NCBI GenBank assembly: GCA_963795935.1
Contig: CAWCJO010000023.1
Coordinates: forward strand, 33,688 to 97,687
DNA from: Bryobacterales bacterium
Lineage (GTDB): Bacteria; Acidobacteriota; Terriglobia; Bryobacterales; Bryobacteraceae
Direction: 5' to 3'
Length of the DNA stretch: 64,000 nucleotides
Made by a program: the position numbers and the translations under genes. The notes beneath the pieces are model-generated. The model did no database searches and was not told the origin of the DNA. It saw only the letters and a program-made list of their open reading frames with translations. This document shows, piece by piece, positions 10,490 through 42,488 of this stretch; position 1 is the stretch's first letter, and each line of letters begins with the position of its first letter.

Positions 10490-11236
10490 TTATTTTCGCT
10501 CAAGAGAGGACTGAGCGTCGCGGCGGCCCTGTTCGATCCACTTTTCGGCATTGAAACGCGACCAGTACAGCGTGTCGCGGCCGTTTCCGAGAAGCCCTTC
10601 AGGCGCGATTTCGAGAATTTCGATGTCTTCGGGGACGATGGGACGGAAGCGCGACAACGACCGGACGACGCGGACGAAAGTTTTGGGGATGAGGCCCGGG
10701 AGCAGCGCGAGGGCATTGACTGCGACGATGCGCTCGGCTCCGAGCTCGGCAGCGGCCCAAATCGGCAGGGCGGAAAGGAGGCCGCCATCGGAATAGGTCT
10801 TTCCATTGACGCGCACCTGTTCGAAAAGCCCGAAGATGGCCGTGGTGGCCTTGAGCAGTTCCGCCGTGACTTCGTCGTTTCGAAAGATGCGGGGGCGGAG
10901 GCGGGCCAGTTCGGTGACGACGACGGCGTAGTCGATGCGCGGACGGTAGGACGCATAGATCTCCTCGATTTGCTTCATGAGGGGAGCGCAGTCGAGGATT
11001 CCGCCGTGAAAGGCGCGAGGGCGCTGCCAGCGGTACGCGGCGGCGCAATCGAGGTTCAGCCAGCGATGGATCAATTCCTGGGGCGCGCAGCCTCCGGCAA
11101 TGGCCCAGCCGTTGATGGCGCCGATGGAAGCGCCGACGACCAGGTCGGGTTTGAAGCAATCGGAGAGGATGGACCATGCGCCCGCCTGATACGCTCCGAA
11201 CATGCCTCCGGCGGAAAGGACCAGCGCGGTCTTCAA
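10490..11236 (-). CDS. Patatin-like phospholipase
   Basis: Oxyanion motif LVLSAGGMFGAYQAG, GxSxG nucleophile motif GASIG, and a DGG catalytic Asp region (YSDGGL). Confidence 0.8.
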   Translation of the reverse strand: MKTALVLSAGGMFGAYQAGAWSILSDCFKPDLVVGASIGAINGWAIAGGCAPQELIHRWLNLDCAAAYRWQRPRAFHGGILDCAPLMKQIEEIYASYRPRIDYAVVVTELARLRPRIFRNDEVTAELLKATTAIFGLFEQVRVNGKTYSDGGLLSALPIWAAAELGAERIVAVNALALLPGLIPKTFVRVVRSLSRFRPIVPEDIEILEIAPEGLLGNGRDTLYWSRFNAEKWIEQGRRDAQSSLERK

Positions 11237-12192: not shown

Positions 12193-12217
12193 CGACTAAT
12201 TACAGGTTAACGAACGC

Positions 12218-21687: not shown

Positions 21688-21720
21688 TTTTTCCAGTGTA
21701 CGCGGTAGAATCCAGGTGTT

Positions 21721-23286
21721 GTGACCAGGAGAGATTTTGTTCGCGCCAATGCTGCGGGGGCACTGGCGGCCACTCAGGCTTCGGCGGGAGCGGCGACGCA
21801 GGCTGGATCCGGAGCGGTAGCGGGCGCGGGAAAACAGCCCAACATACTGCTGATCATGGCGGATCAATTGACGCCTTTCATGACCAGCGTGTATGGACAG
21901 AAGGCCGCGCGCACTCCTAATTTGGATCGTTTGGCGAAGGGCGGGACGGTTTTTGACAATGCCTATTGCAACAGCCCGCTATGCGTGCCGAGCCGCACGT
22001 CGCTGTTTACGGGAACGCTGCCGGCCAAAATCGAGGCATGGGACAACGCCGCCGAATTCGCGGCGCACCGCCCGACCTTCGTGCATTATTTGCGGCGCGC
22101 GGGCTACCGCACGGTGGTATCGGGGAAAACGCATTTCATCGGACCCGATCAGATGCACGGCTTCGACGAGCGGTTGACGCCGTGCATTTTCCCGGCGGGT
22201 TTTGCGATGCTGCCGGACTGGCGATTGGGCGCGCGGCTCAATAATGGAACGTCGATGCAGAGCATGCTGCGCATGCTCGGGCCTTCCACGTGGACGAAGC
22301 AGCTCGGATACGACGAAGAGGCGTTTCAGCGTTCCATGGCGCGGCTGCGGGCTTACGCGACCGGGAAACGGGAGCAGCCGCTATTTCTAAATGTTTCGTT
22401 CACGCAGCCTCACGACCCTTTCACCACCACGAAGGAATTTTTGGATCTGTATCGCGCCGAGGACATGCCGCTGCCGCGGGATGACGGCGACATCAAGAAG
22501 CTGAGTCCTACGTATGAGTGGTTCGAAATTTTTCATGGCACAAATTTGGAACGGCTGCCGCCTGAAAAGATCCGCGAGGGGCGGCGCAACTATCTCGGCA
22601 TGATCTCCTGGGTAGACAACCGCGTTGGCCAGTTGATGGACGAGCTGGACCGTTTAAGGATGACGAACGACACGGTGGTAATTTTCACGAGCGATCACGG
22701 CGAGATGTGCGGCGAGCACGGGCAGTGGTCGAAGCGCTTGATGCTGGAATGGTCGGCGCGCATTCCACTGATTGTCAGCGCTCCCGGCCGATTTGCGGCG
22801 GGACGGCGTAATACGGCGCTGGTGTCGCTGGTGGATCTGTTCCCGACGCTGACGGATTTGGCGGGAGCGAAGCTCGAAACTCCGCTGGACGGCCGGAGCT
22901 GGATACCGCTGCTGAACGGAAGCGAAGACGGGCGGGAGCGCGAGGTGGTGGCGGAATATTTAGGCGAGGGGGCGCTCGAGCCCATTCGCATGTTGCGCTC
23001 CGGGCAGCGCAAAATTATCGTGACCAACGGCTACGGACCGCAGCTATTCGATCTGGAGCGCGATCCGGGGGAGACGGTGAATCTTTCGGGTGAGCGCGAT
23101 TACGCTGCGGTTGAAAAGAAACTGCTTGCGAAGGTGGAACAGAATTGGGACGGTCCGGGTCTGAAGCGGGCCGTTATGGGCAGCCAACAAGAGCGGCTGC
23201 TGATTCGATCGAGCGATCAACACGGCACGCCGGTGCATTGGGATTACGAGCCTAGCGAGCCGGGGCCTTATCGCGAACCCAAGTAA
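21721..23286 (+). CDS. Sulfatase (choline-sulfatase-like) with a Tat signal
   Basis: MTRRDFVRANAAG Tat motif, CVPSRTSLFTG FGly motif and a SDHGEM region. Intact 521 aa. Confidence 0.8.
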   Translation: MTRRDFVRANAAGALAATQASAGAATQAGSGAVAGAGKQPNILLIMADQLTPFMTSVYGQKAARTPNLDRLAKGGTVFDNAYCNSPLCVPSRTSLFTGTLPAKIEAWDNAAEFAAHRPTFVHYLRRAGYRTVVSGKTHFIGPDQMHGFDERLTPCIFPAGFAMLPDWRLGARLNNGTSMQSMLRMLGPSTWTKQLGYDEEAFQRSMARLRAYATGKREQPLFLNVSFTQPHDPFTTTKEFLDLYRAEDMPLPRDDGDIKKLSPTYEWFEIFHGTNLERLPPEKIREGRRNYLGMISWVDNRVGQLMDELDRLRMTNDTVVIFTSDHGEMCGEHGQWSKRLMLEWSARIPLIVSAPGRFAAGRRNTALVSLVDLFPTLTDLAGAKLETPLDGRSWIPLLNGSEDGREREVVAEYLGEGALEPIRMLRSGQRKIIVTNGYGPQLFDLERDPGETVNLSGERDYAAVEKKLLAKVEQNWDGPGLKRAVMGSQQERLLIRSSDQHGTPVHWDYEPSEPGPYREPK

Positions 23287-23295
23287 TCGCGTTCT

Positions 23296-24159
23296 CAGCC
23301 CGCAGCGAGGCTCGCTTCGTAGAGCGCGCGGACTTCCTGGAGCGTGCGCATGGGATCTTTGGAGGGGTTGTATTCCATGGCGACGAATCCGTTAAAGCCG
23401 GACCCTTGAATGGCCTTGAAGACGTTGGCGTAATTGATCTCGCCGGTACCGGGCTCGTGGCGTCCGGGCACGTCGCCGACGTGAAAATGATCGATGGCGC
23501 CGATGTTGCGGCGGATCGGTATCGATCAGGTTTCCGTCCATGATCTGCACATGGTAGATGTCGAAAAGGATTTTGACGAACGGACTGTCGACTTCACGCA
23601 TGATCTCGAACGCTTCGGCCGTGTGATCGAGAAAATAGCCCTTGTGATCGACAAGCGTGTTGAGCGGCTCGACGATGAGCGTGACGTTGTGAGGGGCGAC
23701 GATGTCGTGTGCGGCTTGAAGCCCGGCGACGATGCTTTTATGTTGCGCCTCGCGGCTCATTCCAGGGACGGCATTGCCGGTGAGCGTGACCATGCGATGG
23801 GTCTCGAAGCGCTTGGCGGCTTCAAGTGACGCGCGGATTTCGGCGAGGAATCCTTCGCGATCGCGGGGATCGCATAAGCCCATGCCCTTGGGGTTCACGC
23901 CGCGATTTCCGACAATGCAGGCGCACTCGAGGCCCAATTTATTTTTGAGCGGCGTGATGACGGCGGGATCGGCGGCGCGCCAATTGCCGAACTCGAAGCC
24001 GTGATAACGCGCTTCGGCCACTTTCGCCATTTGTGCGGGAAGGGCGAGGCCTTTGAAGAGCGGCTCCACGCGAACGGACAGCTTGTATGAGGGTGGCTGC
24101 GATTGGGCATTGGCCAGCGGGACGGCGGCGGCAATTTGGATCAGAGTTCGACGCAGCAT
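23296..24159 (-). CDS. Xylose-isomerase-like TIM-barrel protein (hydroxypyruvate isomerase / sugar-phosphate epimerase family) with a frameshift near 23515
   Basis: TIM-barrel motifs (GFEFGNW, ...EPLN..). After the frameshift an alternative frame reads IRRNIGAIDHFHVGDVPGRHEPGTGEINYANVFKAIQGSGFNGFVAMEYNP..., the canonical C-terminus of this family. The ORF-finder frame instead gives an R-rich junk tail. Confidence 0.65.
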
Positions 24160-24233: not shown

Positions 24234-27200
24234 ATGCGAGCTATCTTGATCGGGGTCGTGTGCGCCGCGGCGATGTGGGCGCAAGTAGACACGGGCGCTG
24301 TTTCGGGCGTGGTCACGGACCGGACCGGGTCGGTTGTGCCAGGGGCGACGGTTCAAATCGTTCAGAAGGAAACGAATTTTCAAACCACCCTGCAGACCAA
24401 TGAGTCGGGATTTTATTCGGCTCCGTCGCTGCAGCCGGGGCAGTATCAGATCACGGTTACGAAAGAAGGCTTCCGGCCTCAAAAAAGTCAGGTATTCGAG
24501 GTTCGGGTACAGGATCGCGCGGAGCTGAATTTTCAGCTCGAAGTGGGCGCGACGACGTCAGAGGTGACGGTATCGGCCGCGGCGCCGCTGCTGGAATCGG
24601 AGACTTCGAATCTGGGGCAGGTGATCGAAGAGAAGACGGTCACCGATTTGCCGCTGAACGGACGCAGCTTCATACAACTGGCGACGCTGACGGCCGGAAC
24701 GCTGCCTTCGACGCGGACGCCGGAGCGCGACAATTTTATCTCGAATGGCGCGCGGGCGGTGCAAAACAGTTACCTGCTGGATGGTATCGACAACAAGAAC
24801 CGCATCCTGGGATTCGACAAGAGCTCGGCGCAGATCGTGCAGCCCATCGTGGATGCGATCGAGGAGTTCAAGGTACAGACATCGACGTTTTCGGCGGAGT
24901 TCGGGCAGGCGGCGGGCGGCGTGGTGAACGTGACGCTACAGATCGGGAACGAACAGCTTCCATGGCGATCTGTTCGAGTTTCTGCGCAACTCCGACCTGG
25001 ACGCGACGCCGTATTTCCAACCGGCGGGGGGCAAGCCGCTGTTTATCCAGAACCAATTTGGAGCGACGTTTGGCGGGCCGATCGTCAGGAATAAAACATT
25101 TTTCTTCGGGAGTTGGCAGAGCTCGCGAGAGGAAAATGCCGCTCCGCAGATCGCTTCCGTGCCGACGGCGGCGGAGCAGCAGGGCGTCTTCCCGTCCAAG
25201 ATCACGGACCCCGCGACGGGCGCGGCGTTCCCCGGCAACACCATTCCGATGAGCCGCTGGGATCCGGTTGCCGCGGCGCTGGTGGCTTTATATCCGGCGC
25301 CCAACCAGCCGGGCATTGTGAATAACTTTTATTACAACCCGAAGGAACGCGTCAGCAGCGACACTTATAATCTACGGCTCGATCATCATTTCAACTCGAA
25401 GGATTACCTGTTCGGGCGAATCTCGCAGGGCTGGGGAGAAAATTTTCTTCCCACGCTGTTGCCGCAACCGGCGAATCAACAGGGCTTCACGGATCTGACG
25501 CAGCGGCAAATCATGGTGAGCGAAACGCATACGCTGAGCGCGAACAAGCTGAACGAATTCCGGTTGGGTTTCACATACACGCTGAACAATCAGGACGTTC
25601 TGGGGCCGCGGCTGTTTTCGCAATTTGGGATCAAGGGCGCGCTCGACGAGCCGAGGATCAAGGGCTTGCCCGTGTTCACCATCACGGGCTTTTCCGGTTT
25701 GGGCACGCAAAACCCGGGCAACACGCCGATTCCGGCGTCGGGTAGCGGCAACTTTCCGGCCGAGAAATCGGGGAAACTGTGGCAGCTTCTGGATAATTTT
25801 TCCTGGATACACGACCGGCACTCGATCAAGTTCGGCGTCGATCTGGAGCGCGTCACGATTTTCGCGTATGCGACCAACAGCGCGCGGCCGACTTATACGT
25901 TCAACGGAACGTACACTGGTTCCCCTCTGGCCGATTTTCTGTTGGGATATGTTTACAGCGCGTCCACTTCGGAGCAGCAACTCGATACCCTGCAGCAGTA
26001 CGTTTACAACGGCTACGTGCAGGACGACTGGAAAGCGACGAGCAGGTTGACGCTCAACATCGGGTTGAGATATGAGCTGCCGACGCCATTCGTCGAAGCG
26101 CACGATCGCCAATCGAATTTCGTGCTGGACCAGGGGCCATGCTATTTGCAGCTCATCACGGTCGCTCAGGACGGGCAGTGCGGCATAGGACGAGCGTTGA
26201 CGCGGACGGATTACAACAACTTCGCGCCGCGAGTGGGGCTGGCGTATCAGGCGACGGGGAAGACGGTAGTCCGCAGCGGCTTCGGCGTTTTTTATGGGCG
26301 CGATGAAGACCTCGGAATTCAGCGGCGGTTGCCCAATAACCCGCCGTTCGTGACCAGCTCTTCGTTCACGGGGAGCCAGACTACGCCCACGTTCCTGCTG
26401 CAGAACGGATTCCCCTCGGATGCATTATCTCTGGCGAGCCCGAGCGCCACCGTGAACAGCTATCCGTTTAATTTCCCGGTCCCGTATGTGATTCAGTGGA
26501 ACTTAAACGTGGAACGGCAGCTGGGTGGGAACTTTGTCGCGCAAGTGGGCTACACGGGTTCGGAAGCGCACAAGTTGCCGGAGGTGGTCAACGTCAATCA
26601 GGCGTATCCGGGCACGGGAAACGTGAATGCGCGGCGTCCGTACCAGGGCATTGGCGATATTTTCTTCTATGGACCGCTGGACAATTCCACGTACAATGCG
26701 TTGATCGCGAAACTGGAGCGGCGCTTTTCGAAAGGCCTGAGCCTGCTCGCGTCGTACACGTATGGGCACTCCATTGACGGCGGCGGCAATCAGAACGACA
26801 GTAACGATCCGGGTCCGCAGAATCCGCGCGATTTGCAGGCACAGAAAGGCTCGTCGAATTTCGACGTGCGGCATCGTTTCGTGGTGAGCGGATTCTATCA
26901 ACTTCCGTTCGGGAAATCGGGCGGCTTCTTCTCGCCTCTGGTTAAGAACTGGCAGCTATCCGGAATCTTTTCGGCTCAAACCGGGCAGCCGCTGACGATT
27001 ACGCTGAGCACGGATCCGACGGGAACGGGCACGACGGCGCGGCCGAACCGGATCAGCGATGGCAATCTTCCAGCAGATGAACGGACGCCCACGCATTGGT
27101 TCGATACGGCGGCATTCGTCAACCCGGGTTGCGTGTGCTATGGGAATTCGGGCCGCGATATTATCAGGGCGCCCGGTTTCGTGGATCTCGACCTGGGAGT

Positions 27201-27384
27201 GCTGCGCGATTTTCTGATTGGGGAGCGGTTCCGTTTGCAGTTCCGGGCGGAATCGTTCAATTTGATGAACCATCCTAATTTTGGATTGCCGAACATGGTG
27301 ATTGGAAATCCCATGGCAGGCATCATCACGTCGGTGGTCAACCCGGAGCGTCAAAATCAGCTTGCATTGAAATTATATTTCTAG
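24234..27384 (+). CDS. TonB-dependent receptor (Acidobacteria type) with a +1 frameshift at ~24960
   Basis: Signal peptide plus CarboxypepD_reg motifs (GVVTDRTGSVVPGATVQIV...YQITVTKEGF), plug (VTDLPLNGRSF), and a barrel with terminal LALKLYF. Removing one C in cttccatgg restores ...NVTLQIGNEQLHGDLFEFLRNSDLDATPYF... across the two ORFs. Confidence 0.8.
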
Positions 27385-27400
27385 GCGGTTCTAAACACAT

Positions 27401-30388
27401 ATGGCATTCACGCGTTCACTGTTTGTAATCGCATTGACGGCCTCGGCGGCGATGGCCCAAGGTCCCGCGAGCGTTCGGATTCTGTTGGGCATTAGCGATA
27501 AGGTGGCGACGCCCTGGGACGGCTCGGTGGAAGTTGCAGGGAGCGGGACGGCGACGCTGGAGCCGTGGCGATTTGATGGCTCGGACACCATCTCGGGCAC
27601 GACGTGGAAGGCGAGCACGCACCAGGTGCGGCTGTTCAGTCAAGGAAGGCAGGTGAACGGAACGCCCATCCTGGACGTGGTGGCGAACGGCGTGGTCGTG
27701 AATGTGCCGCAGGCTTCCGGCGATACGGCGCTTCGCGTTAAAACGGCGCAGGGCAACTTCGACGTGAAGCTGAGCGAGATTCCGTATGGAACGAGCGTTT
27801 TGAAATTGAATGGGCGGGTGTTTGTGGATCGCGTGCCGGCGGCGCAACGTCTGACCGAGACTCCGGATGAAGAGGATTTTCCCGCGGCGACGACGGCAAA
27901 GAATGGCGATATCTGGATCGCGTACGTGGTGTTCCGCCATAATCCGAACCACGACGCGCTGGCGGCTCCAAGAACGACGCCGGTGACGGATTTTGCGGGT
28001 TTGAAAGCGCCGACGGGAGGAGATCGGATCATGGCGCGGCGCTATGCGAACGGGCATTGGGACGATCCGGTGGCGATGACGGATGGGGGCGGAGACCTGT
28101 ACCGCTGCTCGGTCGCGGTGGATGGACGAGGGCGTCCGTGGGTTTTCTGGTCCGCGAATGTCTCCACCGGTACTAGGGCCAACTTCGATATTTTCGGACG
28201 CGCGATCGAAAACGGAAGAGCGGGAAGACAGGTGCAGCTTTCGCGCGAGCCCGGATCGGATGTGGACGCCGTTGCGGCGACGGATTCGAATGGGGCGGTG
28301 TGGGTCGCCTGGCAGGGTTGGAGAAACGGGCGCGCGGGGATCTTCGCCGCGGTGCAGAACGGCGATGGATTTGCGGCGCCGGCGGCGGTTTCGAAGTCCT
28401 CGGGGAATGAATGGAATCCCGCGATTGCGGCCGCGAAGGGAGGACGCGTGACGGTTGCGTGGGACTCCTACCGCGCGGGGAATTACGACGTTTACGCGCG
28501 AACGGCCTCGGGCGCAAACAACTGGGGCGCGGAAACGCCGCTGGCGGCGACGGCGCGGTACGAGGCGTATCCATCGATCGCCTATGACGATTCGGGCCGG
28601 CTGTGGGTGGCGTATGAAGAGGGCGGCAAGGGGTGGGGCAAAGATTTCGGCGCTTATCGCACGGGCGGCGTGTCGGTCTATCAAGGGCGCGTGATTCGGA
28701 TTCGCGGATTCGAGCCGAATGGGCGCGCGGTGCAACTTCCGAGCGATGTCGCGACGGTGCTGCCGGGGATTCCGACGCTGAAGGCGGAGACCAATGGCAT
28801 GCCCAGCGGAAGCGACGGTCTGGATCCAGATCCCGCGGGGGCCAAGGATCGCGTTCCGGGGCGGCCGGTGCTGAATCAGCTCAACCCCAAGAACAGCCTG
28901 CCGCGGTTGCTGATCGACGGGTCGGGGCGGATGTGGCTGGCGTTCCGCAGCTACCATCCCATCTGGTGGAATCCGATCGGCACGGTGTGGACGGAATTCG
29001 TGGTTTCGTTCGACGGCGCGAGCTGGACGGGGCCGGTGTTTCTGCCGCACAGCGGAAACCTGCTGGACAACCGCCCGGCGCTGGCATCGGCGAGTGGGGG
29101 GGATTTGATGGTGGTCGGTTCGTCCGATGGGCGGCGCGATTACCTGTTAGGCGAGCAGCGCGGCGGAGGATACGGCGGCTTGGGAACGCCGCTGCGCGAT
29201 CCGTACAATAACGATCTGTTCGCGAATGAGATCGCGCTGGGGGCGGGGCGCGGATTGGAAAGGGTTGTGACGGCGGCGGCGCCGCGGGCGGGCGAGGCGC
29301 CGCCGGGGGCGGCTCAGGAAGCGGCCGCCATCCAACGCGTGCGCGAATATCGAATGCCTTCAACTGGAATGCGAATCGTGCGCGGGGAGTTCCACCGGCA
29401 CAGCGAGCTATCGCACGACGGCGGGTATGATGGCACGCTGTTCGACCAATGGCGCTACATTTTAGACTCCGCATCGCTCGACTGGGTGGGATGCTGCGAC
29501 CACGACAACGGCGGCGGCCGCGAGTACACGTGGTGGCTGGCGCAGAAGCTGACGGACATTTATTACGCGCCCGGGCAATTCGTGCCCATGTTCAGTTATG
29601 AACGGAGCGTTGCGTATCCGGAGGGGCATCGCAACGTGATTTTCGTTCAACGCGGCATCCGGACATTGCCACGTTTGCCGAAGATGGCGCCGGATACGCC
29701 GGGGCACGCTCCGGACACGCAGATGCTGTACGCGTATCTGAGATTTTTCAACGGCGTTGTGGGCTCCCACACGAGTGGAACCAACATGGGGACGGATTGG
29801 CGCGACAACGATCCGAATCTGGAGCCGGTAGTGGAGATTTATCAAGGCGACCGGCAGAGCTACGAAATGCCGGACGCGCCGCGATCGAGCTCGGCCGATG
29901 ACGCGATTGGGGGATGGCGTCCCAAGGGTTTCGTCAATCTGGCGCTTGCGAAGGGCTACCGGCTGGGCTTTCAAGCCAGCTCCGATCACGTCTCCACGCA
30001 TTTGAGCTACTGTAATATCTTCGTGAAAGACGCCACGCGCGAATCCGTTTTCGACGGGTTGAAGAAGCGGCACGTTTACGGCGCGACCGACAACATTCTG
30101 GCCGACGTTCGCAGCGGCGATCACATGATGGGCGACGTTTTTTCGACGGCGTCGCCGCCGGCGTTACAGGTGAGCCTGACCGGCACTTCGAACTTCTCGA
30201 AAGTGTACGTCGTGAAAGACAACAACTACGTCTATTCGGTCAATCCCAATTCACCGACAGTGTCTTTCTCGTGGATCGATAACGCCGCCGAGCCATCGAA
30301 GACCAGCTACTACTACGTTCGCGGCGAGCAGGACAACGGCGAGATCGTGTGGGTTTCGCCGATGTGGATCACATACACCGGAAAGTAA
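27401..30388 (+). CDS. Large secreted protein, paralog A (995 aa): N-terminal beta-propeller with repeated W-x-A/F-W motifs plus a C-terminal PHP-like metal-dependent phosphoesterase domain (possibly DUF3604-type)
   Basis: Signal peptide. Repeated blades (WVFWSAN, WVAWQGWRNG, VTVAWDSYRAGNYDVYAR, WVAYEEGG, WLAFRSY). The C-terminal domain carries GEFHRHSELSHDGGYDG...CCDHDNGG...SDHVSTH, i.e. a PHP-style HxH...D...H metal-ligand pattern. It starts 17 bp after the TonB receptor stop. Confidence 0.6.
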   Translation: MAFTRSLFVIALTASAAMAQGPASVRILLGISDKVATPWDGSVEVAGSGTATLEPWRFDGSDTISGTTWKASTHQVRLFSQGRQVNGTPILDVVANGVVVNVPQASGDTALRVKTAQGNFDVKLSEIPYGTSVLKLNGRVFVDRVPAAQRLTETPDEEDFPAATTAKNGDIWIAYVVFRHNPNHDALAAPRTTPVTDFAGLKAPTGGDRIMARRYANGHWDDPVAMTDGGGDLYRCSVAVDGRGRPWVFWSANVSTGTRANFDIFGRAIENGRAGRQVQLSREPGSDVDAVAATDSNGAVWVAWQGWRNGRAGIFAAVQNGDGFAAPAAVSKSSGNEWNPAIAAAKGGRVTVAWDSYRAGNYDVYARTASGANNWGAETPLAATARYEAYPSIAYDDSGRLWVAYEEGGKGWGKDFGAYRTGGVSVYQGRVIRIRGFEPNGRAVQLPSDVATVLPGIPTLKAETNGMPSGSDGLDPDPAGAKDRVPGRPVLNQLNPKNSLPRLLIDGSGRMWLAFRSYHPIWWNPIGTVWTEFVVSFDGASWTGPVFLPHSGNLLDNRPALASASGGDLMVVGSSDGRRDYLLGEQRGGGYGGLGTPLRDPYNNDLFANEIALGAGRGLERVVTAAAPRAGEAPPGAAQEAAAIQRVREYRMPSTGMRIVRGEFHRHSELSHDGGYDGTLFDQWRYILDSASLDWVGCCDHDNGGGREYTWWLAQKLTDIYYAPGQFVPMFSYERSVAYPEGHRNVIFVQRGIRTLPRLPKMAPDTPGHAPDTQMLYAYLRFFNGVVGSHTSGTNMGTDWRDNDPNLEPVVEIYQGDRQSYEMPDAPRSSSADDAIGGWRPKGFVNLALAKGYRLGFQASSDHVSTHLSYCNIFVKDATRESVFDGLKKRHVYGATDNILADVRSGDHMMGDVFSTASPPALQVSLTGTSNFSKVYVVKDNNYVYSVNPNSPTVSFSWIDNAAEPSKTSYYYVRGEQDNGEIVWVSPMWITYTGK

Positions 30389-30403
30389 AATCGTATTTCA
30401 TCG

Positions 30404-33400
30404 ATGGACGAAGAACGGCAGGAACGAATTCGCTATTACGCCTTTGCCGCCGTGGTCGGCATTTTGCTGGCCCTGAACGGCCTCGGAATCTTCCGGACTT
30501 TTTTGGGGATCGACACGGCGGTGTTCATTACGCTGCTGGCCGGTTACAAGACTTTCTACAACTCGATTTCGGCATTGTTGGAGAAGCGCATCTCGGCGGA
30601 TATCGCGTTGTGCGTCGCGGTGATCGCGGCGCTGGCGGTGGGCCAGTATCTTGCCGCCGCGGAAGCGATGTTCATCGTGCTGGTGGGGGAAGGCCTGGAA
30701 TCGTATGCGGCGGGCCGGACCGCGGCCGCGATCGAGCGATTCGTGCAGCAATTGCCGCGCACCGCGCGCGTGTTGCGGGAGGGGCGCGAGGAAGAAGTAG
30801 ACGCCGAATCGCTGGCGCGTGGACGATCTGATCCTGGTGCGCGCGGGTGAAAGGATCGCCGCCGACGGCGTGGTTCAGGACGGTTTCTCGGCGGTGGATG
30901 AAAGCTCCATCACGGGCGAGCCATTGCCGCGGGAGAAGCAGCCGGGCGACGAGGTATTTTCCGGGGCATTGAACGGCGCGGGGCTGCTGCGCGTGCGCGT
31001 TTCGCGCGCCGGGTCGGATACAACTCTGGCGCGCGTGATCAAGCTGGTCGAAGAAGCGCAGCAAAAGCGCGCGCCGGTGGAACGCCTGGCGGATAGAGTG
31101 GCGAAGTACTTCCTTCCGGCGTTGTTGCTGGCGGGCGCGTTGACGTTTTACTTCACGCACGACTGGCTGCGAACGGTTTCGGTCCTGATCGTGGCTTGTC
31201 CCTGCGCGCTGATTTTGGCCACGCCTACCGCGATGGTGGCGGCAATCGGAGGTCTGGCGCGGCGGGGCATTCTGGTGCGCGGCGCGGCGGTGCTGCAGAG
31301 GGCGGCGCGCGTCGGCACGATGGTCTTCGATAAGACCGGAACCATCACGGAAGGACAATTCGAGGTTGTCGCCGTTATTGCTCTGGACCGGACAGAGGAC
31401 GAGCTGCTGGCGCTGGCGGCGGGAGCGGAGCGTGCTTCGGATCACGCCTTGGCGCGCGTGATCGTGGAGGAAGCGGAGCGGCGGGGCATCGCCTCTTCGG
31501 CGCCTGACAGCGCGCAGGCGCTCCCGGGGCGCGGCGTGGAGTGCGCCTTCGGCGGGCGTACGGTGCGGGTGGGCAATGCGGGATTTTTAGAGCAGGCGGG
31601 CATTCGTAATACGGCGGCGCTGCTCGAGGAAGCGGACCGGCTCGGCGCCTCCGCCGTGCTGGTATCGGATGGCGATCGCCTGGCGGGCGGGATCCTGCTT
31701 CGCGACCGGCTGCGCGACGGAGTGCGTGCAGCGATGGCGGGCTTCGACGAGCTTGGCATTACGCGCAAGTTCATGCTGACCGGAGATAGGCGGCGCGCGG
31801 CGGAAGCGATCGCGCGGGAAGCGGGAATTTCCGAACTCGAAGCGGAGCTGTTGCCGGAACAGAAGGTGGAGCGCATTCGGGCGTTGATGTCGCAGGGCGC
31901 GGTCGCGATGGCCGGAGATGGGATCAACGATGCGCCGGCGCTGGCGAGCGCAAGCGTTGGAATCGCGGTGTCGGGCGCAAGCGATATTACGGCCGAAGCC
32001 GCGGACGTAGTCTACCTGCCGCGAAGTTTGGAGAAGCTTCCGAAATTTTTCGAGGTTAGCCGGCGCGCGGTCTCGACGGCCTGGCAGAACATTATTCTTT
32101 TCGCCGGGGTCGTGAATGTGGGCGCCGTGATTTGCGCCGCGACGGGCGTGATCGGACCGATCGGGGCGGCGCTGACGCACCAGCTTTCCTCGTTTCTGGT
32201 GATGTTGAACTCGCTGCGGCTGCTGCGGGTGGAGCGGTCCGAGTCGCGCGTGGCGCGCTATGCGACTTCTCTGGCAGCGAGGTTGGCGTCGCGCACGGCG
32301 CTTCCACAAGCGTGGGACCGGCTGCGAAATGTCACGGGGCGCATCGATATTTCCGCGGGCATTGATTGGCTGACGGCGCACCGTCAATCGCTCGCGCGCC
32401 CGGCGCTTGCGGCGGTGGCGTTGCTGGCTATATTGAACGGCGCTTACATCATCCGGCCCGACGAGGTCGGCATTGTGCAGCGCTTTGGCCGCAAGCTGCT
32501 GCCTTATAGCGAGCCGGGGCTGCATTACAAGCTGCCGTGGCCGGTGGAGCGATTGACGCGCATACAATCGCGGCGCGTGCGGCGGCTGGAGATCGGGTTC
32601 CGCTCGAATTCAACATCGCCCGAGGCCGAGCCGGCGGCATACGAATGGAACGTTCAGCACGCCGCTGGACGGTTTCAACGCCGGCCGGAAGAAGCATTGA
32701 TGCTGACCGGCGATCAGAACATGATCGAGCTGAATGCCACGATTCACTACGATCTGCCGCATCCGGACGATTTCCTATTTCGTCAATTCGATGCGGAGGG
32801 AAGTCTGCGCGCGGCGGCCGAATCCGCCATCGAATCCGTCATTACGGTGACGGGGCTTGATGCCGTCCTGACATCCGGAAGGAGAGCAATTGAGGAGAAG
32901 GCGCGCCGCGAACTGCAGAAGCGGCTGGACCGTTATGGATGCGGGATTCGGGTTCGGAGCTTGCGGCTGGAAGACGTGCATCCGTCGGTCGAAGTAGTGG
33001 ACGCGTTTCGCGACGTCTCCGGAGCGTACGAAGAGAAGAACCGGTTGATCAACGAAGCGGAAGGTTATCGCAACGAGCAGATCGCGCTGGCGCGCGGCAA
33101 TGCGAAGGCGCGCATTGCGAACGCGAACGCGTACACCGACGGGCCGCGTGAACCGGGCGGAGGGCGATGCGAGCCGTTTTGAGCAGCGCGAGGCCGCATT
33201 CCGGGCGACCCCCGGGCCGGCCGAGACGCGGCTCTATTTCGAAACGATCGACCAGGTGCTTCCGGGGAAGAGGAAATTGATCGTCGATCACACCAAGTCG
33301 GCGCGCCGTCTGTTTCTTCTTGAAGACGGCGCGGTGCTGGGCGGCACGCCGGCGGGTCCACTGTTCGCTCCCCCGGCGCAGGGCGCAAGAATACCAGAAG

Positions 33401-33405
33401 AGTAA
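30404..33405 (+). CDS. P1B-type heavy-metal-translocating ATPase continuing in frame into an HflK-like SPFH/band-7 domain. Two +1 frameshifts (near 30815-30825 and 33140-33150) break the reading frame.
   Basis: ATPase motifs: ITGEPLP, TM6 CPC (VACPCALILATP), DKTGTIT, GDGINDAPAL, final TMs ...LNSLRLL. There is no stop after them. The frame continues through a TM helix (ALAAVALLAILNGAYII) into IVQRFGRKLLPYSEPGLHYKLPWPVE...DQNMIEL...EAEGYRNEQIALARGNAKARIA (HflK). After a frameshift it continues as AEGDASRFEQREAAFRATPGPAETRLYFETIDQVLPGKRKLIVD. Confidence 0.6.
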
Positions 33406-33416
33406 TAGAAACTTCA

Positions 33417-34304
33417 ATGCATCACATTCACCGGAAGTACGTTGCAGGCGCGGCAATCGCGGCGGGTCTGCTTTGCTATCTCACCTTTTTCACCGTGAAG
33501 GAGACCGAATTCGTTCTCGTGACGCAATTCGGACGGCCGCTCTACACGGTTGCGTCCGCGGGATTGCACGTCAAGTGGCCGTTCCAAAGCGCGACGCGCT
33601 TCGACCGGCGGCTGCGCATCTACAATCCGAGGCCGTCGGAGTTTTTGACGCGCGATAAAAAGAACGTCGTCATCGACAATTACGTGGCCTGGAAAATACA
33701 AGATCCGAACCGCTTCGTGCAAACCGTGGGCGATCCGGTGGCGGCCGAGATGCGCCTGCACGACATTGTCTGGTCGGGGCTTTCAGCGGCGCTCGGAACC
33801 CACGATCTGGATTCGCTCGTCTCGGCGGATGAATCCAAAGTTCAAGCCGGCAATCTTCTGGACCAACTCACGTCCAATACGGACCGCGCGGCGCTGGAGC
33901 AATACGGCATCGACGTGGTTGACGTTCGCATCAAGCGTCTGAATCTGCCGGAACAGAACAAACAGAGCGTATACGCGCGCATGCGGGCTGAGCGCGAACG
34001 AATTGCGCGGCAATACCGGGCTGAAGGCGAAGAACAGGCGCTCGCGATCCGGGCGGACGCGGACCGCCAGAAAGAAGAAATTTTGTCGGTCGCTTATAAG
34101 CAGGCGGAAACAGTTCGCGGGCAGGGCGATGCGGATTCCACGCGAATTTATGGCCAGGCGTATTCGAAAAACCCGCGGCTGTATAAACTTCTTCGCACGC
34201 TGGAGTCTTATAAGAAGATATTCGACGATAAGACGACCGCGATTTTGAGCTCCGATTCCGAATTGCTGAAGGTGCTGATCCACGGCGAGGCCGGCGTGAA
34301 ATGA
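33417..34304 (+). CDS. hflC: HflC-like SPFH/band-7 membrane protein
   Basis: N-terminal TM helix, VKETEFVLVTQFGRP, an SPFH core and a C-terminal coiled region with ERIARQYRAEGEEQA. ~295 aa, as for HflC. Confidence 0.75.
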   Translation: MHHIHRKYVAGAAIAAGLLCYLTFFTVKETEFVLVTQFGRPLYTVASAGLHVKWPFQSATRFDRRLRIYNPRPSEFLTRDKKNVVIDNYVAWKIQDPNRFVQTVGDPVAAEMRLHDIVWSGLSAALGTHDLDSLVSADESKVQAGNLLDQLTSNTDRAALEQYGIDVVDVRIKRLNLPEQNKQSVYARMRAERERIARQYRAEGEEQALAIRADADRQKEEILSVAYKQAETVRGQGDADSTRIYGQAYSKNPRLYKLLRTLESYKKIFDDKTTAILSSDSELLKVLIHGEAGVK

Positions 34305-35287
34305 GCTCGCTGCTTATCGAGCCGGCAACGGCCGAACCGCAACCGCGCTTCGTGGAAGCGGCGCCAAGCGCTCCTCCACGGCGGCGGCGGCGCGTGGGCG
34401 AGATTCTGGTCGTCCTCTGGGCGATTTCAGGCGTGTATCTTGTCCGTCCCGATCAACAGGCGGTTGTGACGCGATTTGGCGCCGTGGTGGAGTCGCGGGT
34501 CTATCCCGGTTTGCATTACGCGCTGCCGTGGCCGCTGGACCGCGTGTACAAAGTGAAGGTGCACCAGACGCAGCGCCTCGCGATCGGCGGCGATGTGGCG
34601 GATGCGGTGCTCGGGCGCACGCAGCCGCTCGCTTCTCAGTTTCTGACGGGCGATCAGAACATTATCAACATGCGGGTAGTCGTGCAATATTCGGTTGCCG
34701 TGCCGGTGGACTATCTTTTTTCCACTCTCGATGTCGCGAAATGCGCCGGTGCGGCGGTGGAAGCGGAACTCGCGCGGCGCCTGGCGCACGGTAGCGTGGA
34801 TGCCGTGCTTACGACCGAAAAGTTGGCGATCCAGGACGAGGCTCTCTCGACGGCGCAGAAACGTCTGAACCAGTACCGGACGGGCGTGAAGCTTTCGACC
34901 GTCAATATTGAAAGCGTCGCTCCACCGCCCGAAGCGGCGGACGCATTTCGGGATGTCGCCAGCGCGCGCGCCGATACCGCGCGGATTGTCGATGAAGCGC
35001 AGGGTTACGCGAACGATCTCATTCCCCGGGCGCGCGGCGAGGCGAAGCAACTGACGGAAGCGGCCGAAGCGTACAGGGCGTCCAAAGTGAACGAGGCGGC
35101 CGGCGAGGCGGCGCGGTTCACGGCGGTTGCGGCGGAGTATTCGAAGGCTGCCGATGTCACCGGGAAGCGGCTATATATCGAAGCGATGGAGCAGATTCTT
35201 CCGAAGATCCGCAAAATGATTGTCGATCCGAACGGGAACCTGGATCTCTCGATTATCCGCAAAGGCGAAGCAGCCCCGAAGCCGTGA
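34301..35287 (+). CDS. hflK: HflK-like SPFH/band-7 membrane protein (second HflK copy, intact)
   Basis: Pro/Arg-rich N-terminus, TM helix, VRPDQQAVVTRFGAV...PGLHYALPWPL, LTGDQNIINM, and a C-terminal EAQGYANDLIPRARGEAKQL...AEYSKAADVTGKRLYIEAMEQILPKIRKMIVD. Confidence 0.75.
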   Translation: MSSLLIEPATAEPQPRFVEAAPSAPPRRRRRVGEILVVLWAISGVYLVRPDQQAVVTRFGAVVESRVYPGLHYALPWPLDRVYKVKVHQTQRLAIGGDVADAVLGRTQPLASQFLTGDQNIINMRVVVQYSVAVPVDYLFSTLDVAKCAGAAVEAELARRLAHGSVDAVLTTEKLAIQDEALSTAQKRLNQYRTGVKLSTVNIESVAPPPEAADAFRDVASARADTARIVDEAQGYANDLIPRARGEAKQLTEAAEAYRASKVNEAAGEAARFTAVAAEYSKAADVTGKRLYIEAMEQILPKIRKMIVDPNGNLDLSIIRKGEAAPKP

Positions 35288-35757
35288 ATCGCGATCGAAT
35301 AGCGAAGGCGGCGACGATCGTTGTCGTGATCGTTTTGCTTGGTGCTGTGGTCATTCGCAGGAGCGGCGTGCGCCTGGCATCTCGTCCCGATCCTGCTCCG
35401 CAGGATGCCATTTACCAGATGCTCGAAGCGGCGCGCGCGGGCAACACGGCAGCGTACCTGGCGCGCTACACGGGACAGATGCGAAGCGCGCTGAACCAAA
35501 CCATCGCGGAAAAAGGGGAAGCGGGGTTCAAGAGTTACTTGCAATCGAGCAACGCGGAAATTAAGGGTCTGGCGGTTTTTGGGCCGAAGCAGGTTTCCGA
35601 TAATGAAGTTGCGGTGCGGGTGGAATATGTTTATCGGGAACGCAACGAGGTGCAGGTCTTCTATCTCGTGAAGACCGCGGGAATCTGGAAAATCTCGCGC
35701 GTGGACAATACGGAGCGGATCAAGACTCTGGTTCCGTATGGAACGCCGGTCCAGTGA
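35284..35757 (+). CDS. Hypothetical membrane-anchored protein (single TM plus ~120-aa periplasmic domain)
   Basis: TM helix ATIVVVIVLLGAVVI followed by a small globular domain. Overlaps the hflK stop by 4 bp, so it is probably part of the same operon. Confidence 0.5.
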   Translation: MNRDRIAKAATIVVVIVLLGAVVIRRSGVRLASRPDPAPQDAIYQMLEAARAGNTAAYLARYTGQMRSALNQTIAEKGEAGFKSYLQSSNAEIKGLAVFGPKQVSDNEVAVRVEYVYRERNEVQVFYLVKTAGIWKISRVDNTERIKTLVPYGTPVQ

Positions 35758-35809: not shown

Positions 35810-35935
35810 AGAAGCGGTGTTCGGCGAATGCGCCGCGCATCGGCAAGCCGTGTTCGGGCGGAGGCAGCGCCGTTCGCACGACGGGTGTTCGGGCGAAAGC
35901 GGCACGCGTTGGCCCAAGCCGCGTTCGGGACGTCA
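35810..35935. repeat. Degenerate short tandem repeat (~17-18 bp unit, ~7 copies, core G(T/C)GTTCGG) in a convergent intergenic region
   Basis: GTGTTCGGcgaatgcgcc / gCGCATCGGcaagcc / GTGTTCGGGcggaggcagcgc / cGTTCGCacgacgg / GTGTTCGGGcgaaagcggcac / gCGTTGGCccaagcc / gCGTTCGGGacgtcagg, read directly from the sequence. Confidence 0.45.
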
Positions 35936-38838
35936 GGGTTGTTTCGCGTAGTTTACCCAGATCGGACTGGACCAGGCCAGATTGCGGTCTTTCTGCATTA
36001 CGCGGACGTAGTACCAGCTCTCTTTGCCGCCCGGGTTGCTATCGACATAGGTGAACTCGGCGCGATCGGACGTGCCTGGCGTTTGAAATACAAACGTTCC
36101 GTCTTTCACGATTTCGATCTTCTCGATATCGTCCGTGCCCTGCACCTTTATGAGGAACTGCGGCGCGGCGGAGGCGGAAAACGCATCGCCCATGAGGTAT
36201 TGGCGGCCAGCGGCATCGCGCGCCTCGAAATCGAGAACGATGTTGTCCGTAGCCCCATAGGCGTGCCGTTTGCGCATGCTCTCCACGATGTCCGCGCGAT
36301 TCGTCGTGGGCGTGTAAATCAGAGTGTACGATGAGTGCGTGGAGACGTGATCGGAGCTCGATTGCACGCCGAGCTTGTAGCCTTTGGCGAGCGCATTCCA
36401 GTACATTCCGGAGGGCTGATATTTGCCGTGAGCGGGAACGCTGTAGTTGTCGCTGTCGGCGCGCGGCGCTCCAGCATATTCGCTGCTCGCATCGTAGCCC
36501 TGATAAATCTCCACGAGAGGTTCCAGGACCGGATCGTTGTCGCGGTAATCGCTGCCCTGATCGGTGGCGAGGGAGTGCAGCATACAGATGCCGCGATTTT
36601 GTCTGAGATAGGGATACAGAATCGGCCCGGTGTGTATCGTTCCGCGCTGCTCGGCCTGGCTGATCGGCAGCGTTCTGACGCCGCGCTCGGGAAAAACGAC
36701 ATTGCGGTGGCCGTTCGGAAACGGCACGCTTCGCTCATAGCCGAACAGGGGCGTCATCCGTCCTCGAATGTGAAACAGATCGATGGATTTTTCCGTGCGC
36801 CACCAAGTGTATTCGTTATCTTGTCCCTCGTTATGATCGGAGATAATGCCCGTATCCATGGAGGCTGCGTCCAGCATGTAGCGCCAGTAGTCTTCAACCG
36901 AACCGTCGCCCGCGCCGTCTTGCGAGATTTCCGTGTGGCGGTGGAAATCGCCGCGCAGGATGCGAAGCTCATTGCCCGCAAGGTTGACGCGATAGGAACG
37001 GATGCGTTGCACGTCCTCCGGCTCATGGCGATGAATGGGTGTTTCGTTCCCGCGTGGATCCGCGAAATCGGCGAGCAACGCCGGCGGAGACGCTACCGAG
37101 CGATGGGAATCGGGGCGCCGAAAATCAGATCATTCGGGCCATTGCGGTTGACCCCGGCCGGGCCGCCCATCAGCATGGTGCGGTTATCGTTCACCCACAC
37201 CATCCAGTTGCCGGCCGCTCCCGAACGGATCTGCATGGGGCTTTCCGGGCGCGAGCTGGCCTCGGGAATGGGGGCCAGCGGAGTCCAGCGGTCGCCTTCC
37301 AAAGTAGTCAGGAAACGCTCCCAGCGTCCGCCGTTGGCCCAGTGATCGGAGCGGTTATTATTCACGGCGGTGCGAAGTTCGAGCTCGATCCAAATGCGCC
37401 CGGAAGCGTCGCTCAACACGCGCGGCAACTCCACGAAGCGGTTATAACGGCTGGGAATCGAGTCGGACAGATTGGCCGCGGGCTGCTTCCAGCGGCCGTT
37501 TTCGAGCACCGCAAGGCGCGGATGGCGATCGAAGTACAGAGTGGTGCCGCGCCACATGTCGTCGCGATTCCAGTCCTTGCCCCAGTTCGAGCCGGACTCA
37601 TCCCACGCCACCCACGCGCGATCCTGCTTGTCCACCGCAACCGTGGGATGCGCCTGAAAACGTACGGACTGCGTAACCTGATCGAGCGGTCCGAGCGTTC
37701 CATCGGAGGCGACGCGGCGCAGGAAGATATCGTAATTTCCGGTGCGATAACTATCCCAGACGACGTAGAGATTGCCTTGGGAATCGCACGCGCCCTGGGG
37801 GGCCCAGGCGCTCGGCCCGCTGATCTCGGTTGCGGTGGACCATTGATCGCCGTTCAACTTGCTCCAGTAGACGTGCGATACGCCGTCCTGATATCCGGTC
37901 CAAATCAGGTGCAGGTTTCCCGCCGCATCGGCGATCATTTGATGAAACATGTTGGGGCTATTGGCGGACGTGATCTGCCGCGGCGCCGACCAGGTCTCGC
38001 CGGAATAAACCCGCGCCCACAGGTTCCAATCCTCATTGGCGCGCTCGGACCAGACGACCCAAATACGGCCGCGGCCATCTTCGGCGATTGCGGTCCGATA
38101 CACGTCGCCTTTTTGAGTGGTGAGCCGGAATGGCACGGACCATCCGCCGGCGATCGAGTGCCGCACGTAAACGTTGTCGCCGTCGTTGCGGTAGGCTTGC
38201 CAGGCAACCCACACCGAGCCATCTTTTGACAGCGCCAGGGAGGGATAATCGTGCTGCTCGACCTCAGCGGCGGCCTGGGGCGGCGAGATCTGCTGCGGCG
38301 TCAGCGTCGGCTGCACCAGGATATCGCCGTCGTTGAAGGAAAGCCTGCGGCCGATCCGCATATCGCCAATCGCGATCGAGAAATTCGCGGATGACGTGCG
38401 GACCTGCGCCGTGGCGGAGGCGGGCGCGTCGACCGTTACGTCCACGCCGGCGGGAACGATGTTTTGCGCAACGGCTTGGCCGATGGGGGTGGGCGCATCC
38501 GGCTGGTTTTCGAAATTGATCCGGCGCAATTGGAGCTTCCAGGCAGAGCCGCCTTCGACTGCATCGGCGGGACCAAAGCGCCACGGCAAGATGCGGACCA
38601 CCGTGCCTTGGCTCAGCGTGATGCTCCCCGAGTAGTTGCCGGCAAGATCCTGTTTCTCCCCGAAGGTTATGCGGAAGGAAAGAGTGTTGGCTGAGGCAGA
38701 CTGCGGCCGCGCGCCGATGGCCTGCAGAGGCGCGGAGCGAGTTCGCTCGGTCACGACGAGCGTCGCGAACAATAGAAGAATTGAAATCGCCGCGACGCCG
38801 GACGCGGCCACTGGATGCCTCTGTGTTATTTTTCTCAT
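35933..38838 (-). CDS. Paralog B of the secreted beta-propeller + PHP-like phosphoesterase protein, split into two ORFs (37093-38838 N-terminal, 35933-37078 C-terminal) by an apparent frameshift near 37078-37095
   Basis: Same architecture as 27401-30388, with ~45% identity by eye in the C-terminal domain: GDFHRHTEISQDGAGDG...ISDHNEG...EYTWW...ERSVPFPNGHRNVVF...SDHVSTH...KRHAYGATDNI. N-terminal blades WVAWQAYRNDGDNVYVR, WVVWSE, HLIWTGY, YVVWDSYRTGNYDIFLR, WVAWDESG. Signal peptide MRKITQRHPVAASGVAAISILLLF. Confidence 0.6.
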
Positions 38839-39039
38839 CGCGCCAATCTCAATCAGCTTATTACACTCGAGACCCGGATGCGTGGCCGGGTATGCACGTA
38901 GCCTGAGACATGCAATCGGGAGCTGAGGACGCGCCGATCTTCGGCGGCAGGGGTTCTTATCGCGGCGTAATCGTCCTCGGACGGATGTATACTCTTGAGG
39001 ATCGGCGGCCAAACGGAAATTCGGATAGAGGAGCCCCTA

Positions 39040-42000: not shown

Positions 42001-42488
42001 AGTTGGTTGGGGGCTGGGAGTTCAGTACCATCACCACGGTTCAAAGCGGCGCGGCGACTGAAACGGCATCATGGGACTCGGCCGGCGTGGTCTTCTCGCC
42101 GAGCGGCGAACGGCTCAACTGCCTTGCCGGCGTGAATCCGGTTCTGCCCAATCCCAACGCGAGTGGCGGGTACGGTTGGTATAACGCGGCGGCATTCTCA
42201 AACCCGGTCGCCGGCACGTTCGGAAACTGCGGCCGCAACAACTTGAGGGGGCCGCGAATGGTGAATGTCGATTTCTCGGCGATCAAGCATTTCCCGATCG
42301 CTGAAAGACAGTCTCTCCAGTTCCGCGTGGAAATGTTTAACGCTCCGAACCATGTAGAGTTAGGCACTCCGGGTTCGGTGAGCTGGGGAGGCAGCTCGAA
42401 TGTTGCGCCACCCTCGAATTTCGGCGTCATTACTACGACCGCCGCAAGCATGCGCCAGATTCAGTTAGCGCTCAAGTACGATTTCTGA
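39040..42488 (+). CDS. TonB-dependent receptor (Acidobacteria type), intact
   Basis: Strong SD (ggatagaggag) 6 nt upstream of the ATG. CarboxypepD_reg motifs (GEVKDQSGAIVAGVAVTATN...YQVKAVATGF), plug (ISELPLNGRDF), and a long barrel ending LALKYDF. Confidence 0.85.

Follow-up and report, generated by a model that had tools for sequence, protein, structure and literature searches.

A P1B-type ATPase fused to HflK in the Bryobacterales, and the metal-efflux platform to which it may belong

A 64,000-nucleotide stretch of DNA from a Bryobacterales bacterium (assembly GCA_963795935.1, contig CAWCJO010000023.1, positions 33,688 to 97,687, forward strand; here called the window) holds, at 24234-35757, a cluster of six co-directional genes on the plus strand. 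One of these joins a P1B-type ATPase, a metal pump, to the SPFH-family protein HflK in a single polypeptide. Together with HflC and a second, free HflK, this fusion makes up a trio that is kept together across several phyla. We favor the view, at a probability of roughly 55%, that the conserved unit is a metal-efflux platform scaffolded by SPFH proteins, and not a machine running from a TonB-dependent receptor to the inner membrane, as a first-pass annotation of the same DNA had suggested.

The pump and its fused scaffold

Genes in the window were called from a listing of open reading frames (ORFs) and from profile searches with Pfam and NCBIfam. With frames corrected where needed, the cluster is composed as follows (TM, transmembrane).

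24234-27384, plus strand: TonB-dependent outer-membrane receptor, about 1049 residues after frame correction (CarboxypepD_reg, 74.8 bits; Plug; OMP_b-brl_4, 727 bits)
27401-30388, plus strand: Sec-exported protein of 995 residues with a propeller and a DUF3604/CehA-McbA-like (PHP-like) domain (weak Reg_prop; DUF3604)
30404-33405, plus strand: P1B-type ATPase–HflK fusion, 999 residues as reconstructed (E1-E2_ATPase, Hydrolase, Band_7)
30404-32240, plus strand: P1B ATPase domain of the fusion, residues 1-612 (TIGR01525, 551.8 bits against a cut-off of 346.25)
32241-32453, plus strand: cytoplasmic linker (residues ~613-664) and ninth TM helix (665-683) of the fusion, from a hydropathy scan
32445-33405, plus strand: fused HflK, with SPFH domain, coiled coil and C-terminal tail, predicted to be periplasmic (TIGR01933 equivalog, 207.2 bits against a cut-off of 159.4, model positions 2-256 of 261)
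33417-34304, plus strand: HflC, 295 residues, one N-terminal TM helix (TIGR01932 equivalog, 216.5 bits against a cut-off of 134.4)
34301-35287, plus strand: second, free HflK, 328 residues, one TM helix at residues 32-50 (TIGR01933, 219.6 bits against a cut-off of 159.4); the gene begins in the last 4 bp of HflC, across its stop
35284-35757, plus strand: single-pass membrane protein of 157 residues, one TM helix by hydropathy scan

After frame correction, the genes are separated by gaps of 16, 15 and 11 bp, and then by two overlaps of 4 bp. This bears out the first-pass annotation, which had six tightly spaced genes on one strand and which made no mention of frameshifts; the TIGR01933, TIGR01932 and TIGR01525 scores bear out as well its identification of an HflK-HflC-HflK set next to a heavy-metal P-type ATPase. 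Spacing and synteny speak for co-transcription of what would be a single six-gene operon. A scan for promoter and terminator consensus sequences across the cluster returned the counts expected of shuffled sequence, and is therefore uninformative, and an Rfam search for metal riboswitches in the window and seven related loci returned one transfer RNA only.

As deposited, of course, the fusion is not one gene. It lies in three pieces, and the receptor lies in two ORFs (24234-25094 and 25159-27384). Three-frame translation locates three breaks in these two genes of the six, each a +1 shift: at 24936-24940 in the receptor, at 30818 in the region of the ATPase A-domain, and at 33138-33144 near the C-terminus of the fused HflK. 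The closest relative found, a metagenome-assembled genome (MAG) of the Bryobacterales (locus L003), is collinear with the cluster over 11.6 kb at 85.4% DNA identity, and its genes are intact. Aligned with it, each frameshift site is an uncompensated one-nucleotide insertion in the window. By the same comparison, isolated single-base insertions interrupt no fewer than five genes in some 16 kb.

The junction between ATPase and HflK lies away from every one of these sites, in one continuous frame. Because that frame is equally continuous in all homologues, more than 120 of them, an origin of the fusion as a frameshift artefact was rejected.

The fusion is, in fact, genuine, conserved, and the member of a large family. 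The reconstructed protein of 999 residues has homologues of about 1000 residues in more than 120 clusters (formed at 90% identity). These are 67-92% identical to it, carry E1-E2_ATPase, Hydrolase and Band_7 domains, and come mostly from Bryobacteraceae and other Acidobacteria; database entries call them "HflK" in some cases and "Cu+-exporting ATPase" in others. When 1.84 billion representatives were searched exhaustively with HMMER, at least 60 further clusters (at 50% identity) of full-length fusions came to light, 33-64% identical and 990-1150 residues long. A scan of one genome per species, queried with a junction alignment of five sequences (a 23-sequence version was too diverse), found matches in 473 species genomes; the best 80 all span the whole junction and are nearly all Bryobacterales. 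Thus, the coupling of an ATPase to HflK/C proposed in the first-pass annotation is real, is covalent, and is conserved in these many homologue clusters and, as the trio, across phyla.

That annotation also knew of no described system that couples such a pump to HflK/C and a TonB receptor, and no publication on a pump so coupled to HflK/C was found in the searchable literature, where a P-type ATPase fused to, or in an operon with, HflK, SPFH, band 7 or stomatin proteins was sought. What is new here, then, is a pump–HflK fusion for which we found no published description; the two halves belong to well-known families, and there were precedents both for P1B pumps on scaffolds and for SPFH cages whose clients are transporters.

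What kind of pump is it? The domain has eight TM helices, the four N-terminal P1B ones included, and no N-terminal metal-binding domain. Its catalytic motifs are intact in the reconstructed protein (DKTGT, as DKTGTIT; TGE, as ITGEP; and GDGINDAP), and the pump is, in sequence, catalytically complete; these motifs and its TIGR01525 score make it a P1B-type ATPase. The metal-site motifs in the window are CPC in TM4 (ACPCAL), Asn in TM5 (VVN), and HQLSS in TM6. Across 62 diverse aligned fusions, TM4 is CPC in 60 (the exceptions being P0140, with CSC, and P0232, with SPR), and all 62 retain the TM5 Asn and a TM6 H(Q/E)xxS. The spacing between the two is N-X20-H; the residue that follows the His is Q in 154 cases, E in 15, and N never, and is itself followed by x-S/G. 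In a hand alignment anchored on NSLRL, the TM6 His falls on the Met of the Cu-pump MxxSS motif and on the His of the P1B-4 HEGxT motif.

An assignment to the P1B-1, P1B-2 or P1B-4 class was not retained. For the P1B-1 Cu(I) class (YN; MxxSS), TM5 VVN keeps the Asn and loses the Tyr, and in TM6 His replaces Met; the pump scores 431.8 bits with TIGR01511, above its cut-off, and passes the Cd-type model as well. Neither the TM5 Lys nor the TM6 DxG of the P1B-2 Zn/Cd/Pb class is present, and the ZntA equivalog models give 353 bits against a cut-off of 1240. With the P1B-4 class (SPC; HEGxT) the pump, having CPC in TM4 and HQLSS in TM6, shares the His alone. With P1B-4 and P1B-6 pumps together it shares the absence, or near absence, of an N-terminal metal-binding domain, and a TM6 His where Cu pumps have Met; it differs from both in having CPC, not SPC or SCA, in TM4, and H-Q/E-x-S in TM6. 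Set beside the "P1B6-like" signature published for the mycobacterial pump CtpC (CPC with N-X18-H-N-X-(S/T)), the fusions have CPC with N-X20-H-(Q/E), and their nearest unfused relatives, with CPC and HN or HQ, resemble it. Against solved structures the pump scores 361 bits with A. fulgidus CopA, 340 with L. pneumophila CopA, 320 with sCoaT (P1B-4), and 311 with ZntA. Because CopA, sCoaT and ZntA are all at much the same distance from it, the pump is best placed in a P1B subgroup of its own, marked by CPC, N-X20-H-Q/E-x-S and the lack of a metal-binding domain.

Beyond the eight P1B helices, the hydropathy scan finds the ninth, reached through a linker of about 50 residues that is poorly conserved and variable in length and sequence among fusions; a juxtamembrane W..HR motif is conserved. 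The C-termini of P1B pumps lie in the cytoplasm, and therefore the SPFH domain, carried across by linker and ninth helix, would lie in the periplasm; such is the predicted topology of the fused HflK, and it is that of a free HflK.

The SPFH domain of the fused HflK carries, in addition, an insert of 15-20 residues (E[IV]GFR...YEW..H..G; window ~32700-32800, fusion residues ~765-800). Across phyla the Trp in it never varies and the His hardly does, and the free HflK has no such insert. It could be a contact to the membrane or to the pump. Because the fused HflK has a conserved insert of its own, with these two residues so held, it reads as a specialised paralogue and not as a random join.

Neighbors of the fusion

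The company that a gene keeps across genomes is, of course, a guide to which of its neighbors matter. Neighbors were counted by tblastn of the six window proteins against 81 related loci (Bryobacterales). HflC lies directly 3' of the fusion in 78 of 78 loci, and free HflK is present in 73 of 73. The 157-residue protein is found in 58 of 70. The propeller/PHP-like gene stands immediately upstream on the same strand in 24 of 57 and within 10 kb in 36 of 57; several loci have it as tandem copies, or together with an interposed gene for some 600-820 residues without family assignment. The TonB receptor is near the fusion in only 12 of 54, lies on the opposite strand in two (L002 and L004), and is absent from all distant loci. 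All six genes stand co-directional, with tiny gaps, in the window, L001, L003, L023 and L046. Gene order is thus conserved for fusion, HflC and HflK, largely so for the small protein, and not for the receptor.

Farther afield, orthologues of HflC and of free HflK are again found. Two loci, L083 (Planctomycetes/Verrucomicrobia-like) and L086 (an unassigned Logan contig), have the fusion with an HflC-type and an HflK-type gene only. On a contig with Planctomycetes-type genes (P0155), the trio stands between an upstream thioredoxin-like gene and a downstream LGT, and an Elusimicrobiota MAG (L084) has two Band_7 genes, CbiQ and an ABC ATPase, and then the fusion. An Armatimonadota MAG has five genes: a DUF3604-like protein of 915 residues, the fusion, HflC, HflK, and a protein of 169 residues. 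The first and last of these are homologous to the window hydrolase, as the propeller/PHP-like protein is called below (E = 5e-43), and to the 157-residue protein (E = 8e-22). In a second clade, of 80 metagenome loci (Planctomycetes-like), HflC is adjacent in 51 of 64 and free HflK in 36 of 49; no hydrolase, small protein, receptor or other recurrent neighbor was found there beyond HflC and HflK.

The cluster can accordingly be resolved, on this gene-content evidence, into three layers: a widespread trio, two accessory genes common to Acidobacteriota and Armatimonadota, and a lineage-specific receptor. Four Bryobacterales-like operons carry the labels Nevskia soli, Gammaproteobacteria, Verrucomicrobiia or Acidimicrobiia (L019, L023, L024, L059); these are probably mis-binned or contaminated assemblies.

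The small protein of the second layer has, in an alignment of 63 sequences, a conserved soluble domain of about 120 residues without conserved Cys or His. It matches Rv0361_Cterm (28.9 bits, below cut-off) and DUF4179 weakly, gives chance-level matches only against PDB sequences, and gave no match to NfeD in Pfam or NCBIfam scans.

The hydrolase of the same layer has a signal peptide, an N-terminal beta-sandwich, a sialidase-like beta-propeller, and a C-terminal DUF3604/CehA-McbA-like domain (about residues 640-995). A full-length model (predicted local distance difference test score, pLDDT, 77.6; predicted template modelling score 0.82) shows the sandwich and the propeller. Pfam DUF3604 matches at 28-32 bits against a cut-off of 20.4, covering about 75 residues of a 591-position profile. 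Of eleven family members, all match DUF3604 and ten give a full-length CehA/McbA match below cut-off; even distant members keep, without exception, the residues HxH, DH, E, GH(R/H)N and SSD(H). Neither phmmer nor a profile search found a match among PDB sequences, and a literature search on DUF3604 found nothing relevant. As a partner of the pump this protein, which the first-pass annotation had proposed in that role, is frequent, and in Armatimonadota as well, but it is not universal.

The first gene of the cluster is a TonB-dependent receptor, a type defined by a plug domain and a 22-strand barrel: beside its OMP_b-brl_4 score, TonB_dep_Rec_b-barrel gives 37 bits, and its Plug match (21.1 bits, just below cut-off) falls on a frameshifted piece. 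As a partner of the pump, the receptor fared worse than the hydrolase. It is one of three receptors of one family in the window (475-3396, 24234-27384 and 38910-42488, all plus strand), and the window also holds two propeller/PHP-like genes. The second of these is divergently paired with a receptor, with no pump:

35933-39012, minus strand: paralogue of the propeller/PHP-like gene, convergent with the cluster (43% identity in the C-terminal domain, 27% in the N-terminal part)
38910-42488, plus strand: a second receptor of that family (TonB-dependent), in divergent orientation to the paralogue (OMP_b-brl_4, 734.5 bits; CarboxypepD_reg, 71.5 bits); the start of this ORF probably over-extends

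Because a hydrolase paralogue is paired with a receptor where there is no pump, the receptor goes with the hydrolase family and not with the pump. Around the pump, related loci have it at 0.015 per kb, which is not above the frequency of such receptors in the window at large (3 in 64 kb). With these figures and the 12 loci in 54, the receptor was rejected as a conserved partner. For the hydrolase family, the slot directly upstream of the pump has 0.13 per kb and the remainder of the same loci 0.05 per kb; the copies in that slot have the higher similarity (median 58% identity against 45%). From this we conclude that receptor and hydrolase probably represent a separate recurring pairing, one hydrolase lineage of which became attached to the pump operon. 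That the receptor adjoins the pump here we infer to be lineage-specific synteny.

The wider surroundings are rich in secreted enzymes that degrade glycans or esters: two sulfatases, a GH18, an alpha-amylase and a GH28-like beta-helix, which fits a substrate-scavenging region.

20125-21867 (minus strand), 21721-23286 (plus strand), 42490-44031 (minus strand) and 3294-7048 (plus strand): secreted-enzyme genes near the cluster

Elsewhere in the window, a gene for a CHAD-domain protein adjoins one for a Ppx/GppA phosphatase (14839-17201, minus strand), a polyphosphate-related pair. A high-GC stretch at 9859-13781 has several ORFs of 220-300 residues without a Pfam match, overlapping on both strands.

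Relatives of the pump and of the platform

The nearest unfused relatives of the pump share with the fusions the CPC of TM4 and the N-X20-H spacing, and have HN or HQ in TM6. Three of them are informative in their surroundings. The first (L088:569-3231) has a CsoR/RcnR-family repressor downstream and, directly upstream, a protein of 82 residues, rich in His and Asp, with a C-terminal TM helix; this small protein is reminiscent of the PacL-type partners described below. The second (L169:6685-8908) has its CsoR/RcnR-family repressor upstream, and this one shows an x-C-H-C fingerprint. The third (L087:769-7863; HQFSS in TM6) follows immediately on a complete cobalt/nickel uptake set, CbiM-PDGLE-CbiQ-CbiO, and a stomatin-type Band_7 and NfeD pair stands 3 kb away from it. 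These neighborhoods are all contexts of metal homeostasis, and they support such a role. An assignment of the metal from neighboring genes was dropped, since the CbiMNQO set and the CsoR-type repressor conflict; the candidate substrates, inferred from the genes, are Cu(I), Ni/Co or Zn.

Systems in which a membrane scaffold serves a P1B pump have been described in mycobacteria. There CtpC, with CPC in TM4 and HN in TM6 and called "P1B6-like", needs the scaffold PacL1 (PMC9374683, PMC13460109), and the two are described as a metal efflux platform or "effluxosome" (PMC9374683, PMC13043812, PMC13460109). PacL is a DUF1490 protein of 93 residues with a cytoplasmic Glu/Ala-repeat region, and forms foci independently of flotillin (PMC9374683). 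PacL1-CtpC and the present cluster have in common a P1B ATPase with a TM4 CPC and a TM6 His motif and a membrane scaffold in the same operon; in PacL1-CtpC the pumps probably cluster in membrane foci. Here, however, the scaffold would be a periplasmic SPFH protein, the link is covalent, TM6 has HQ or HE and not HN, and the N-terminal metal-binding domain is absent. No window protein matches DUF1490 or DUF6110. PacL1-CtpC is the closest functional analogue, the likeness being one of function only.

The scaffold has other relatives. With the HflK/HflC-FtsH system of E. coli the cluster shares the equivalog models, the succession of N-terminal TM helix, periplasmic SPFH domain, coiled coil and tail, and adjacent K and C genes that overlap. 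It differs in that one HflK is fused to a P-type ATPase while a second is free, in the SPFH insert, and in having no ftsH nearby; the client here would be a metal pump, not a protease. In erythrocyte membranes, stomatin cages enclose AQP1 and UT-B, and therefore SPFH cages can hold transporters (PMC12407830). The likeness is an SPFH-family oligomer with membrane-transporter clients; stomatin cages are eukaryotic, monotopic on the cytoplasmic face, and hold their clients non-covalently, whereas here the SPFH domain is predicted to be periplasmic and the client is fused to it. SPFH-NfeD operons, finally, likewise pair SPFH genes with a dedicated membrane partner, and the unfused relative at L087 lies near such a pair, but no NfeD was found in the window or in the Bryobacterales loci.

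A possible working, its rivals and its meaning

In E. coli, HflK and HflC subunits alternate in a large ring or cage. By analogy, the fused HflK and the free HflK would both pair with HflC, and tethered pumps, fixed in number and sub-stoichiometric, would sit on the resulting ring. A pump of about 65 kDa on every second subunit would present a steric problem, which the retained free HflK would solve. The scaffold might cluster, stabilise or gate the pumps within a delimited patch of membrane, and the pumps would export a transition metal to the periplasm. In the Bryobacterales and Armatimonadota, the operon would have gained two further products, the exported hydrolase and the small single-pass protein, which may be users of the exported metal (periplasmic metallation) or may dock on the periplasmic face of the scaffold.

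A bolder form of this proposal, which we regard as a long shot, would have the HflK/HflC ring and its tethered pumps form a closed periplasmic vault above the outlets of the pumps, a metallation chamber that would keep the exported metal in, away from the bulk periplasm, and hand it to the exported apo-hydrolase or to the small membrane protein. If this were true, an SPFH cage would be a prokaryotic compartment for metal trafficking, not for protein quality control.

Several observations weigh against the efflux platform, or against parts of it. Its assembly, stoichiometry, transcription and transported metal are all predictions from the genes. About a quarter of the second-clade loci (some 14, L115, L130, L135, L148, L149, L151 and L163 among them) have no SPFH gene within 8 kb of the fusion, and therefore the SPFH partners are not always linked to it. 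The hints as to the metal conflict, with the x-C-H-C repressor pointing to Cu(I), CbiMNQO to Co/Ni, and CtpC to Zn; were it Cu(I), the pump would be an unlikely source of metal for a PHP-type hydrolase. Hydrolases of this family are locally multi-copy, their enrichment at the pump being only about 2.6-fold over local background. A model of the C-terminal domain alone is unusable (pLDDT 42), and the domain's full-length match to the CehA/McbA model NF038032 (positions 3-314 of 315) scores 35.2 bits, below the cut-off of 80. Finally, the frame breaks could be real, and this copy non-functional.

This last point deserves a closer look. If the frameshifts are genuine, receptor and fusion are pseudogenes in the source organism, and the locus is decaying. 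Three +1 frameshifts within 11.5 kb are what such a view would lead one to expect, and the deposited record does carry a shortened ORF of 787 residues (P0006) as a protein. However, genes unrelated to the cluster are broken in the same way: a xylose-isomerase-like gene (23392-24159, minus strand) at its C-terminus, and the paralogue at 35933-39012 near 37085-37107, where the insertions relative to L003 fall at 37093-37107. The inserted bases aside, the frames of the cluster stay open, with no further stop codons, and the closest relative is intact, a pattern typical of indel-prone assemblies, which is what the window looks like. Because unrelated neighbors are broken too, the frameshifts are most likely assembly errors, and decay of the locus we consider distinctly improbable.

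Other accounts accept the locus as functional and differ in what it does. The envelope-spanning machine of the first-pass annotation would link an outer-membrane TonB receptor and a secreted propeller/PHP enzyme to the inner-membrane pump with its SPFH scaffolds, in uptake or in detoxification. Six co-directional genes with tiny gaps, in five loci including the window, are naturally read in this way. Nevertheless, the receptor's rarity, its inverted orientation in two loci, its absence from distant ones, its background density at the pump and its pairing with a pump-less hydrolase paralogue all tell against such a machine. P1B ATPases, moreover, export metal from the cytoplasm and do not import it, and therefore an uptake role is unlikely; the machine as a whole we judge very improbable.

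It might instead be that adjacent ATPase and hflK genes were joined neutrally, with no joint function, leaving ordinary metal efflux beside an ordinary HflK/C. Unfused relatives of the pump do exist, and work in ordinary metal-resistance contexts. Yet the fusion has been kept for long, down to 33% identity and across several phyla, its HflK has a specialised SPFH insert, a second HflK has been retained beside it, and even the unfused relative at L087 has SPFH genes nearby; all of this makes a neutral join quite unlikely. An FtsH-centered device is unlikely as well. HflK/C modulate FtsH, and the pump might sit inside an FtsH cage with its level set by proteolysis, or serve as an adaptor that brings FtsH to metal stress. 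The three SPFH proteins pass or approach equivalog models that were built on FtsH modulators, and HflK is where FtsH meets the cage in E. coli (PMC13220708). But ftsH (sought as Peptidase_M41) was found in none of the 12 annotated loci, and the family-specific insert and the always co-encoded second HflK suggest a specialised complex, not a housekeeping one.

If the SPFH-scaffolded efflux platform is the right view, it bears on a question that stands open for the family: what bacterial SPFH and HflK/C assemblies are for, apart from the modulation of FtsH, and which proteins of the membrane lie within them. Here, the gene itself names the client, a pump covalently tied to HflK and provided with a dedicated HflC and a second HflK. 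Current database names each hide half of this protein, "HflK" concealing the pump and "Cu+-exporting ATPase" the scaffold. The fusion occurs in several phyla, in hundreds of genomes from soil and freshwater, which makes the question of the client directly testable, and it would extend the "effluxosome" idea from the PacL proteins of mycobacteria to the universal SPFH family.

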